Translations under genes and position numbers: made by a program | IMG/VR virus record: IMGVR_UViG_3300029288_001872 | Location: 64,001-128,000 of that record | Reading direction: 5' to 3' (one strand) | DNA length: 64,000 bases | Source: a virus | Lineage: Duplodnaviria > Caudoviricetes | Notes under the pieces: generated by a model | What the model was told of the DNA's origin: nothing | What the model saw: the letters and a program-made list of their open reading frames with translations, nothing else | Database searches by the model: none | Shown: in pieces, positions 44,928 through 47,609 of the stretch | Layout: each line of letters begins with the position of its first letter | How positions within the stretch are numbered: position 1 is the stretch's first letter

Positions 44928-45113
44928 ATGTTTATCAAGGTAGTGTGGAAGGGGAAAGTAACTGAAGTTATCCTTCCCCAAAATGGGACAACAGGAGATG
45001 CGTTGAAAGCAGCCCAAATCCCATTTAGTCAAGTAACTGGAATAACCGTAACCGGAGTTCGCTGTTGCGCTGATACCCAATTGAGACCTGACGACACGGT
45101 TTACGCAACTTAA
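44928..45113 (+). CDS. Ubiquitin-like (beta-grasp) protein lacking a C-terminal GG
   Basis: MFIKVVWKGKVTEVILPQNGTTGDALKAA...RCCADTQLRPDDTVYAT aligns with the adjacent Ubl. Confidence 0.7.
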   Translation: MFIKVVWKGKVTEVILPQNGTTGDALKAAQIPFSQVTGITVTGVRCCADTQLRPDDTVYAT

Positions 45114-45148
45114 CCATCAACCTTAAACAAAAAAGGAGGAATTAAAGT

Positions 45149-45355
45149 ATGTTCGTTAAAGTGGCAAAGCTGGGCGCGAAAGTGGAAGAAGTGAATCTGG
45201 CTACCGGGGCCACCGTGGGAGAAGCCCTGAACGTAGCGGGCGTCACTGGTGACAACATGGAGATGAAGTTTAACGGGGTGGTAGTTCAGAAGGACACCCA
45301 ACTCCATGCGGACGGTGTTTTGACCCTGGTTGGTCAGATCAAGGGCGGCGCATAA
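45149..45355 (+). CDS. Ubiquitin-like / ThiS-MoaD-like modifier ending GG-A
   Basis: MFVKVAKLG..VEEVNLATGATVGEAL...KFNG...TQLHADGVLTLVGQIKGGA; AAGGAGG RBS; GC-rich codons. Confidence 0.88.
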   Translation: MFVKVAKLGAKVEEVNLATGATVGEALNVAGVTGDNMEMKFNGVVVQKDTQLHADGVLTLVGQIKGGA

Positions 45356-45369
45356 TCTAAACCTTTAAC

Positions 45370-45411
45370 TTGGCAACCCTGTGATGTTTTGCAGGGTTGC
45401 CAAACTTTTTT
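45370..45411 (+). terminator. Rho-independent terminator after the Ubl gene
   Basis: TTGGCAACCCTG / CAGGGTTGCCAA stem followed by a T tract. Confidence 0.8.
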
Positions 45412-45434
45412 AAAATTGCATTGAAGGAGGTTTA

Positions 45435-46628
45435 ATGGAACCAAAACTCGGCACCAAAGTAAGATTGTTAAAGACAAGTGAATTCTATCATCAAGCACCT
45501 GATGAAATTGGGACGATAATTGAAAGTGCATATACCGATGATCCCGATACCGATTGGTGTAGAGTACAATTCCCAAATAAAACAGACGTATATCGTTTCA
45601 GAGGAGAAGAAATAGACTTGGAATTAGCTGAAAAATGGATTTATAAAAAAGTTGGTGAGTTGAAACCAGAAGATTTGGAAGATGAACAACCAACTTCTTG
45701 TGTATATAAGGATGGAATAGTCTTATTATTGCCAAAAAAGTTTTATGATTTATTTGAACAGAAAGGGATTAAAATTAGTAGACAAATAATTTCTTCTCGC
45801 TGGGGGTGGCTAGCACATGTTAATTTTCATTTCATAAAAGAAGATTGGCGCGGTTATTGGTATAATAAAGAAAAAGAATTTCTTGATGACCTTTTAAAAG
45901 CAATTACCATCGCTAATGAAGAACCTTTTCCTGAAATAAAAGAAGAAAACACATTGGAAAAAGCAATAATGGAAAAAGCAAAAAGAGAGCAAGAAGAAAT
46001 TGATTTAAAAGAATCAAGAGACAGATATGCAAAAGAGTGTACAAAAAGATTAAAGAATAAAAAACGAGAATATGAACAAAGAATTAAAGAAGATGAAGAA
46101 GAAACAAAAGAAATTTCTAGGAGATTAATTGAATTAACCAGAAATATTGATGTGAACAAAAGGATGGTGTTTGGTTTAAACGATCAGAAAGACCATCTTG
46201 AGAAATATGAACAAGAATATGATAAGCTGTTAGAGATGCCTCATGTTAGGAAAGTTCTGGTAAAAAATGGCAGAATAACAGTATTCACTGATACAATATA
46301 TCTGTCTTATGAAAATGAAACCTATGAATTAGGTGAATATCAAATAAATTTTGAAGGACGAGTTAGAATAATCAATGAAAGACCTATATTTAACCCTACC
46401 CATGGCACTAATGAACAATGGTTTCATCATCCTCATGTTTTTGAAGAAGATGGAGGAAACACCTGTTTGGGAAATATTACAGCAGGAATTAGTGAATTAG
46501 TAGGAAAATATGAATATGCAATAGCCACTGCAATTCTGATAGACTTTTTACATACTTGTAAATATCCTCATTATCTGCAAGCTAATTGGAAGCCAATGGA
46601 GAAAGAAAAGGAGGCGTTATGGGCTTAA
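45435..46628 (+). CDS. Second coiled-coil + E2/UBC-like protein
   Basis: Shares RYAKECTKRL...QEYDKLLEMPHVRKVLV with 42046; WFHHPHVFEEDGGNTCLGNI; different, SH3-like N-terminus. Confidence 0.75.
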   Translation: MEPKLGTKVRLLKTSEFYHQAPDEIGTIIESAYTDDPDTDWCRVQFPNKTDVYRFRGEEIDLELAEKWIYKKVGELKPEDLEDEQPTSCVYKDGIVLLLPKKFYDLFEQKGIKISRQIISSRWGWLAHVNFHFIKEDWRGYWYNKEKEFLDDLLKAITIANEEPFPEIKEENTLEKAIMEKAKREQEEIDLKESRDRYAKECTKRLKNKKREYEQRIKEDEEETKEISRRLIELTRNIDVNKRMVFGLNDQKDHLEKYEQEYDKLLEMPHVRKVLVKNGRITVFTDTIYLSYENETYELGEYQINFEGRVRIINERPIFNPTHGTNEQWFHHPHVFEEDGGNTCLGNITAGISELVGKYEYAIATAILIDFLHTCKYPHYLQANWKPMEKEKEALWA

Positions 46629-47119
46629 GTGAATTGATCGCAGAGGGGTTAGATGTTTCTGGAAGTTATTTTGATTGGAACAATTTACCTATCATTGAAA
46701 GAAAAGTAGTTTTGGTTGAACCTGAAACAGAGAACTTTCTTCATATGACCAATAAAGAAATGAAATCAATTTTAAATAATTCTTTTGTGGAAAAAGTGGA
46801 AGAGAATGTTTCTTGTTATGGAATTGTAACTTATATAAAGCCATTCACTATCAAATATGCTAATCAATTTGGGAAAGAACCATTTGAAATGATATATGGC
46901 TGTAGAATTTTACTGAGAACCAGAGGTAAAGGCCCGATGGTCAAATTCTACCATCATAAACATCCAGAAAGAATTAGAAACCATGATAATGTTAGACTAA
47001 ATGGTGGTGTTTGTTTGGGCAACCTTGAAAAACCAATTTCTAAACTGCTTAAAGCGAAAGAATATGCAGTAGCACTTAGTTTGTTAATTGAATTTATCCA
47101 AGTATTCAATGGAATGTAA
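46619..47119 (+). CDS. E2/UBC-like protein
   Basis: NHDNVRLNGGVCLGNL resembles the canonical HPN(V)..GxICL; KEYAVALSLLIEFI helix. Start revised to the ATG at 46619 after AGGAGG. Confidence 0.7.
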   Translation: MGLSELIAEGLDVSGSYFDWNNLPIIERKVVLVEPETENFLHMTNKEMKSILNNSFVEKVEENVSCYGIVTYIKPFTIKYANQFGKEPFEMIYGCRILLRTRGKGPMVKFYHHKHPERIRNHDNVRLNGGVCLGNLEKPISKLLKAKEYAVALSLLIEFIQVFNGM

Positions 47120-47159
47120 ATCAACCAACTAAATAAAAACAAATAAGGAGGAAAAGAAA

Positions 47160-47609
47160 ATGCCAAAGTATCGGGTAACTGAAAAGATTTCACGTGATTT
47201 GGAAGCGAAGCAATACGGCATCCAAGTTTTTGATGTGGAGGCTGATGATGAAGACGAAGCTAAAAATATGGATTCTGACGAGGGAGAGTTGGTCTCTGAA
47301 ACTTGGGAGCCTGTAAGTCAAGAGGAAATAGAAGAAGCCATCAAGGACGCCAATGAAGATGGCGATCACGAGTATGAAGAAAACATCAGCGTCGTCCAAA
47401 TTGGCAGCTCTTCCACAGACCATATGTTTGTCAAAGTGGTCTACAAGGGTAAAGTGGATGAAGTGATGATTTCTCGCGGCGGCGTCATCAGAGAAGCGTT
47501 AGGTGCTGCAAATATCTCTTCGAGAGATGTCATCAACCTCACTGTCACCGGCATCTCTTGTTGTCTGGACACTGAATTGCGCCCAGATGACATGGTTTAT
47601 GTGGATTGA
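47160..47609 (+). CDS. Acidic domain fused to a C-terminal ubiquitin-like domain (no GG)
   Basis: C-terminal MFVKVVYKGKVDEV...SCCLDTELRPDDMVYVD is a clear paralogue of 44928..45113; hairpin at 47613-47640. Confidence 0.75.
   Translation: MPKYRVTEKISRDLEAKQYGIQVFDVEADDEDEAKNMDSDEGELVSETWEPVSQEEIEEAIKDANEDGDHEYEENISVVQIGSSSTDHMFVKVVYKGKVDEVMISRGGVIREALGAANISSRDVINLTVTGISCCLDTELRPDDMVYVD

Follow-up and report, generated by a model that had tools for sequence, protein, structure and literature searches.

A family of tail-less ubiquitin-fold proteins with one invariant cysteine in phage conjugation cassettes

The DNA analysed here (the window, 64,000 nucleotides) covers bases 64001-128000 of the 189,632-bp IMG/VR virus record IMGVR_UViG_3300029288_001872, which CheckV rates as complete. 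The genome is that of an uncultured phage with low G+C content, genes almost all on one strand, and replication genes for a primase, a DnaB-like helicase and a DNA methyltransferase. Within the window, a ubiquitin-like protein (Ubl) conjugation cassette comprises E2-like proteins, a JAB peptidase, a ThiF-type E1 and a conjugatable Ubl that ends in Gly-Gly plus one residue (GG-Ubl). Beside these lie two Ubls that lack the glycine tail and carry an invariant cysteine (Cys-Ubls), one as a stand-alone protein of 61 aa and one as the C-terminal part of a 149-aa fusion with a small acidic N-terminal domain (N-domain). They belong to a previously undescribed family: new, selected, tail-less, single-Cys ubiquitin-fold proteins of phage conjugation cassettes.

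Results

Layout of the locus and relation of the two Cys-Ubls

An intrinsic terminator divides the region into two transcription units (Table 1), the second of which consists of two E2-like genes (397 and 177 aa) and the fusion gene. An earlier reading of the region from its sequence only (the sequence-only reading) had described the two open reading frames (ORFs) as close paralogues that resemble the cassette's own conjugatable Ubl (the GG-A Ubl) and stop before its glycine tail. BLASTP agrees with this description. The 61-aa ORF is identical to the 149-aa ORF at 33 of 59 residues (56%, E 9e-24) over fusion residues 89-147; with the GG-A Ubl it shares 39% identity (E 3e-8). Both Cys-Ubls terminate 2-3 residues past the last strand (beta5), without Gly-Gly. 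The GG-A Ubl has no cysteine and matches ThiS weakly (E 0.0034).

The fusion is a genuine single ORF, because its ATG at 47160 has a strong Shine-Dalgarno sequence in front of it and the internal Met89 does not; an internal start at Met89 was ruled out on the same ground. Read-through from the 61-aa Cys-Ubl into the GG-Ubl was also ruled out, given the different frame and an intervening TAA stop.

Table 1. Features of the cassette in the window and, in the last row, Ubls of other loci that carry a Cys at the same column
Feature	Position	Strand	Remarks
E2-like protein, 438 aa	42046..43362	+	opens unit 1; coiled coil and C-terminal HHPH...CLGN core
JAB/JAMM peptidase	43396..44202	+	HxHx7Sx2D motif intact
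ThiF-type E1, minimal, 220 aa	44202..44864	+	Pfam ThiF 4.7e-18; NCBIfam and PADLOC E1 matches
Stand-alone tail-less Cys-Ubl, 61 aa	44928..45113	+	C46-C47 codons 45063-45068; C47 is the family-invariant Cys
Conjugatable Ubl, 68 aa, ending IKGG-A (GG-A Ubl)	45149..45355	+	falls in GG-Ubl clade
Intrinsic terminator, 15-bp stem and T run	45370..45403	+	directly 3' of GG-Ubl
E2-like gene, 397 aa	45435..46628	+	unit 2
E2-like variant, 177 aa	46586..47119	+	unit 2
Fusion protein, 149 aa: acidic N-domain, linker, C-terminal tail-less Cys-Ubl	47160..47609	+	AlphaFold2 mean pLDDT 78
Fusion N-domain, residues 1-82	47160..47405	+	AlphaFold2 models and homologue alignment
Fusion Cys-Ubl domain, residues 89-149	47424..47606	+	C134-C135 codons 47559-47564; C135 invariant
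Same-column-Cys Ubls	L007:6885-7295, L082:7915-8331, L055:745-1170, L026:7973-8179		

Predicted fold of the Cys-Ubls

In an AlphaFold2 model of the fusion, built on a 23-row alignment, residues 88-149 reach a predicted local distance difference test (pLDDT) of about 90 and follow the order beta-beta-alpha-beta-beta. The top Foldseek matches of this domain in the PDB are all Ubls, namely TtuB (5gha_H), the ThiS-like Mth1743 (1ryj), SUMO, NEDD8, ISG15 and an archaeal ubiquitin (probability 1.0, target TM 0.6-0.67, root mean square deviation (rmsd) 2.4-2.7 Å over about 61 residues). The Cys-Ubls are thus predicted to have the beta-grasp fold. The ubiquitin-like fold proposed from the sequence for both proteins is what AlphaFold2 and Foldseek return, and the objection that no beta-grasp might be predicted falls away.

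For the whole fusion, ISG15 and FAT10 align over 137-149 columns, but with an rmsd of 14-17 Å, and the N-domain folded alone has no Ubl match above Z 2.9 in a VIA search. In the Cys-Ubl model the cysteine lies just past the short fourth strand, and its column is probably surface-exposed, judging from the variability of this column in GG-Ubls and from DSSP. Co-folding two copies of the E1 with the Cys-Ubl gave a score of 0.02 (mark 0.32), which carries no weight for or against.

A conserved family without a conjugatable C terminus

A profile search of 1.84 billion representative proteins returned 24 matches. About 20 of them are Ubls without a tail, some free (56-88 aa) and others forming the C-terminal end of 136-149-aa proteins having the N-domain; a second search added three further fused members. 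The family comprises 25 distinct tail-less members with intact ORFs, down to about 31-36% identity, and its fused homologues are P0003, P0004, P0010, P0013 and P0028-30. In the searches made here it is confined to metagenomic phage-like contigs; the DNA datasets listed as sources are landfill, groundwater and sediment metagenomes, and no RNA dataset is listed.

All 25 members end 0-6 residues after beta5 without GG, the exception in length being P0011, which has an acidic tail ending in GHR. Since the tail is missing in 25/25 members, conjugation through the C terminus is impossible, as the sequence-only reading had held for the two window proteins. Hidden Markov model scanning of all fetched loci scored the Cys-Ubls at 83-102 bits and the conjugatable Ubls at no more than 41 bits per unit, and in a maximum-likelihood tree a single branch (support 99/99) parts 22 Cys-Ubls from 22 GG-Ubls. 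The family is monophyletic and originated when the conjugatable Ubl was duplicated inside a phage E2-like/JAB/E1/Ubl cassette.

Both Cys-Ubl units and the N-domain are under purifying selection (omega 0.03-0.17). The 61-aa Cys-Ubl has an omega of 0.13-0.17 against its L005 and L004 counterparts, and the Cys-Ubl domain of the fusion one of 0.03-0.14. Together with the one absolutely conserved cysteine, these values mark functional genes, and the suspicion that they are decayed copies fails.

No model in Pfam, PHROGs, PADLOC or NCBIfam matches the Cys-Ubls. For Pfam ThiS (PF02597) or related families, the 61-aa protein has only a sub-threshold match to Ub-Mut7C (E 0.21) and the fusion none. A tblastn search with the Cys-Ubl of 50,697 GenBank phage records gave chance-level matches only (E 3). 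In Flavobacterium and crAss-like phages a related ThiF gene is present and no Cys-Ubl was seen.

Position and distribution within the cassettes

Scans with an E1 profile yielded two partly overlapping sets of 60 metagenome and 14 viral loci. The order E2-like, JAB, E1 holds in nearly all of them, often with the GG-Ubl next. A Cys-Ubl occurs only in a subset: the window with L005, L004, L010, L011, L014/15, L012/13 and L018, and the contigs of P0004, P0007 and P0010, the latter three known from gene tables only. The E1 proteins of these loci are at least 62% identical to that of the window. Locus L019 has an E1 63% identical to the window's, yet this E1 is directly followed by the GG-Ubl, without a Cys-Ubl.

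In all contexts that show the flanking genes, Cys-Ubls of both forms sit between E1 and GG-Ubl, directly 5' of the latter; the sole exception is the window's fused copy, which ends unit 2 after two E2-like genes. The upstream part of the cassette contains a ThiF-type E1 wherever it can be read, in the window, L004, L005, L010, L011, L012, L014/15, L018 and the contig of P0010; the contigs of P0004, P0007 and L013 are too short to reach it. Membership in E1/E2-like/JAB operons across loci bears out the link to conjugation machinery that had been drawn for the two window genes. Because the family arose by duplication of a Ubl gene, the adjacency of Cys-Ubl and GG-Ubl may reflect descent as much as interaction.

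Two observations concern the wider set of loci. Some long viral or metagenome contigs (L049, L058, L087, L090) carry two separate JAB-E1 (or E2-JAB-E1) cassettes. The residue after GG in the cassette Ubls is highly variable (A, K, N, E, V, H, R, F, Y) and Cys recurs at this place, conjugatable Ubls ending in GG-Cys being found at L021:7773-7988, L023:3021-3233, L082:7915-8331 and L086:3759-3968 and in P0033.

One invariant cysteine and the residue changes after duplication

The sequence-only reading had singled out a conserved pair of adjacent cysteines (CC). Its second Cys (C47 in the 61-aa protein, C135 in the fusion) is invariant across the 25 distinct members, and is the only one to be so; the first is specific to the window's own lineage, outside which it is Val or Ile. 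The cysteine stands four residues past the TG turn within the family signature VTGVxVCxxTxLRPxD, and V14, L52, R53 and D56 are further invariant positions.

In L004 the two paralogues share an identical tract of 56 nt in their last third (L004:5755-5810 and L004:8950-9005) and are about 55-60% identical outside it. The tract marks recent gene conversion over exactly the segment that encodes CC and the LRPDD motif, and this accounts for both copies having CC in this lineage.

Comparison with the GG-Ubls, column by column, shows what changed after the duplication. GG-Ubls conserve K7-L8-G9, R40, the VNG turn (N42 invariant), the T59-L60-V61-P62 strand and the IKGG tail; on alignment to ubiquitin, their L8 corresponds to ubiquitin L8 and their V61 to ubiquitin V70. 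These positions are variable or charged in the Cys-Ubls, in which an aromatic residue at 7, T42, C47, T50, R53 and P54 have become fixed. Most GG-Ubls have polar, variable residues in the Cys column. The pattern is one of neofunctionalisation, which argues against a plain decoy or mimic that competes for the E1.

As had been noted from the sequence, CC is present in both window paralogues and absent from the GG-A Ubl. The distinction does not carry over to all cassettes, since conjugatable Ubls of related ones have a Cys at the same column. These form a separate clade with the motif RVNGRTPCG, placed on the GG side of the tree, in cassettes without a tail-less Cys-Ubl; its members are L026, P0032, P0033 and the first units of di-Ubls in L007/L009, L055, L082 and P0031 (coordinates of four in Table 1). 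In the di-Ubls the Cys is in the first unit every time and never in the second, and some single Ubls combine the same-column Cys with GG. A unit with the Cys ahead of a GG unit without it thus exists in two forms, as two genes and as one fused gene. This second occurrence at one column, in a clade on the GG side of the tree, suggests that the position of the cysteine is itself functional.

The acidic N-terminal partner domain

The first 88 residues of the fusion contain 28 Asp/Glu against 7 Lys/Arg (isoelectric point (pI) 4.05), so that the earlier description as highly acidic stands as far as composition goes. What it misses is that the segment forms a small, folded and conserved domain and that the most acidic helix is confined to one clade. 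A beta-beta-alpha-beta core of about 60 aa is conserved in at least six divergent fused homologues, and AlphaFold2 gives a hairpin (3-27), a helix (31-35), a strand (43-49), an acidic helix (54-63) and a strand (75-81). In the alignment, the most acidic helix (residues 54-73) is an insertion peculiar to the window's lineage, missing in P0004, P0010 and L012. The core is acidic too, with a pI of 4.2 in L012.

Folded alone, the N-domain has a pLDDT of 72. The VIA search gave a best Z of 4.2, with ribosomal eL20-like, PurS and T7 Gp2 among the matches, all within noise. The match to T7 Gp2 (2wnm) has Z 3.6 and an rmsd of 2.9 Å over 46 residues, also within noise, and an hhalign probability of 0.4%. 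Searches of BFVD (best E 0.23) and of the ESM Atlas (best score 0.79) gave no convincing match, and Pfam, PHROGs, PADLOC and NCBIfam held nothing. Mimicry of nucleic acid by this domain, put forward in the sequence-only reading, finds no support in VIA, BFVD or hhalign and stays a guess.

In L004, about 160 extra codons (L004:8083-8568) run in frame into the fusion gene through the Shine-Dalgarno region (KEEKK-M), giving a 310-aa 'fusion' whose upstream part has no family match. These upstream residues are probably a separate gene that lacks a stop or a local, lineage-specific three-part fusion, outside the Cys-Ubl family.

E1, JAB and E2-like proteins of the cassette

The E1 is a single adenylation domain without a CYS-domain insertion and without a CxxC zinc site, and its only invariant Cys in the alignment is in the PCT motif. 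With no CYS domain, thioester chemistry must use other thiols. The JAB protein presumably trims the residue after GG; its best PDB matches are all Rpn11 or AMSH but weak (E 0.45-0.85), and Pfam, PHROGs, PADLOC and NCBIfam held nothing for it. In the window's lineage it has a C-terminal Cys-rich extension (CGEC...C...C, window 44050-44199), possibly a zinc ribbon, which is missing from the 213-aa JAB of L011.

The E2-like proteins share invariant H, H, H, C and G residues and the HHPH...C motif. They match nothing in Pfam, PHROG, PADLOC, NCBIfam or the PDB sequences, and no homologue carries a Pfam domain; no named relative emerged from profile comparison with the PDB sequences, from the ESM Atlas or from a search of 5.8 billion proteins.

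The 177-aa E2-like variant reads GGVCLGNL in the window (46586-47119), GGVSLGDL, with Ser for Cys, in L004:7417-8064, and CLRN in L005:9674-10228; this variation is reminiscent of UEV-like loss or of the oxyester chemistry that Bub E2s are reported to use. At L012:703-1303, E1 and the fused Cys-Ubl are separated by two mini E2-like ORFs of 94 and 108 aa that have an HPNHKS motif; a Cys follows the motif in one and is missing from the other, much as in an E2/UEV pair.

Elsewhere in the window, an amidoligase-like ORF (12655-13926; phrog_2443/16683) may be part of another peptide-tagging system, and an ORF at 6168-7295 matches the PHROG family phrog_506, annotated as transposase (9e-111).

Discussion

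Possible roles of the invariant cysteine

Our tentative proposal is that the Cys-Ubl serves as a thiol acceptor or carrier for the activated GG-Ubl. We infer that the E1 cannot adenylate the Cys-Ubl, which would act in trans within the cascade through its thiol. The activated GG-Ubl would pass to the cysteine of the Cys-Ubl either from the adenylate bound to E1 or from the thioester of an E2-like protein, and the product would be a labile, thioester-linked pair, Ubl~S-Cys-Ubl; in the 149-aa form, the small acidic N-domain would be the targeting or cargo end. More doubtful is the fuller version, in which the Cys-Ubl is a Ubl-fold thioester carrier whose Cys-linked, still-activated Ubl pair primes chains or passes the Ubl to targets chosen by the N-domain. 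The carrier reading is favoured because a lone invariant Cys in Ubl cascades usually marks a thioester site, and it would also fit the cassettes with the same-column Cys, be it on a single GG-Ubl or on a di-Ubl's first unit.

Three points weigh against it. Most such cassettes, including some with an E1 52-63% identical to the window's, have no Cys-Ubl and no Cys on the Ubl, so that the cysteine is not needed for the basic cascade. We know of no beta-grasp protein that acts as a thioester carrier. Finally, the cascade reading depends on the E2 identity of the HHPH...C proteins, which is assigned from motif and context.

About equally likely, and thus held with as much reserve, is a non-covalent regulator or adaptor that docks on the E2-like protein or another partner, with the Cys as a redox or disulfide switch and the N-domain recruiting a second partner. 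Action through binding alone is well established for tail-less Ubls such as Hub1/UBL5, the fused form adjoins small E2-like genes in the window, L005, L012 and L018, and the family has conserved surface positions of its own. Binding alone, however, leaves an absolutely invariant Cys unexplained, as well as the same-column Cys in the conjugatable Ubls of another clade.

The remaining explanations do less well. A metal- or disulfide-bridged oligomer or sensor, with Cys residues from several subunits or combined with the His-rich E2-like motif, strikes us as unlikely. The CC of the window lineage would supply four thiols per dimer, self-assembly by way of metal sites is on record for bacterial Ubls (PMC11601603) and the E2-like proteins have an invariant HHxH...C; most family members, however, have one Cys and no other conserved ligand. 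A competitive decoy that fills the Ubl site of the E1 (or of JAB) without being activated, and so throttles the cascade, would suit a protein that is 39% identical to the GG-Ubl, very similar in its N-terminal half and encoded directly after E1. We nevertheless give it a small chance, as the positions most conserved in GG-Ubls, among them the VNG turn, the TLVP strand and those that match L8 and V70 of ubiquitin, are variable or charged in the Cys-Ubl, and as the invariant Cys would have no explanation. About as small a chance goes to a sulfur relay, in which a persulfide on the Cys yields a thiocarboxylate from the adenylated GG-Ubl, the part that rhodanese domains play for Urm1, MoaD and ThiS. 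It accords with the ThiF/MoeB-like E1, the single invariant Cys and the sulfur carriers TtuB and the ThiS-like protein among the nearest structural neighbours; it is made improbable by the E2-like and JAB genes that are always in the cassette, by the same-column Cys on the GG-Ubl itself in other cassettes, and by the finding of no rhodanese, cysteine desulfurase or TtuA/TilS-type PP-loop gene in the whole 190-kb phage. Functionless, decaying Ubl duplicates, which the missing tail and the duplication origin might suggest, are refuted by the omega values, the invariant Cys of 25 distinct intact members and the conserved gene order.

Relation to known Ubl systems

The cassette differs from Bil in its order (E2-JAB-E1-Ubl) and in its 220-aa E1. 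Bil has the order Ubl-E2-DUB-E1 (DUB, deubiquitinase), and its three-domain E1, BilD, consists of IAD, AAD and a mobile CYS domain (10.1101/2023.09.26.559546). The cassette E1 is unlike BilD, which has the CYS domain, and is closer in spirit to the Bub E1 without a catalytic Cys (PMC11601596).

The Cys-Ubls resemble the Ubls of the ThiS/MoaD/TtuB/SAMP type and BilA/BubA in their beta-grasp, their place beside a ThiF-type E1 and a JAB, and their paralogy to a GG-ending Ubl. They differ in lacking Gly-Gly, and with it an adenylation site, in the invariant Cys, in the loss of conserved residues and in having no ThiS match. With the non-terminal units of the bacterial Ubl2/Ubl3 proteins and the ISG15-like BilA (PMC11601603), they share the arrangement of a beta-grasp unit without a usable C terminus beside a conjugatable unit; unlike those, the Cys-Ubl is a separate gene or is joined to an unrelated N-domain, never to the conjugatable unit. 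A Ubl2/Ubl3-like arrangement does occur in related cassettes, in the form of the true di-Ubls with the Cys in the first unit.

Among eukaryotic proteins, Hub1/UBL5, the ubiquitin-fold (UFD) domains of E1 and MUB are Ubls that have no tail or are not conjugated; they work through binding, which in MUB relies on a prenylated Cys at the C terminus. The Cys-Ubls have in common with them a ubiquitin fold without a conjugatable Gly-Gly and a presumed action in trans on machinery or targets. There is no sequence relation, and we know of no invariant internal Cys after beta4 in any of these proteins. A lone invariant Cys, when found in a protein encoded within a Ubl-conjugation operon, is the hallmark of a thioester site. 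The Cys-Ubl has this feature in common with the thioester carriers of ubiquitin cascades (E2 and the HECT/RBR E3 enzymes) and with Cys-linked ubiquitination (Pex5); it is unlike E2, HECT and RBR in that its fold is a beta-grasp and not UBC, HECT or RBR.

Significance

Work on bacterial and phage Ubl conjugation (Bil, Bub, CBASS Cap2/Cap3) is advancing rapidly, and to our knowledge all known parts of these systems are conjugatable Ubls or enzymes. The Cys-Ubl, conserved and clearly under selection, adds a third kind: a Ubl paralogue that has no tail but has a single invariant Cys, occurs free and fused to a domain, and is encoded by phages rather than coming from bacterial defence islands. Should the Cys engage in thioester or disulfide chemistry, a minimal E1/E2 cascade would gain a new step or a new control, in a simple system of four or five proteins to reconstitute. 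As a carrier, it would be a beta-grasp protein in an E2/E3-like relay role, in a phage system with a minimal E1 without a catalytic-Cys domain. Were it only a binding adaptor, it would still be a phage-specific elaboration of Ubl signalling.

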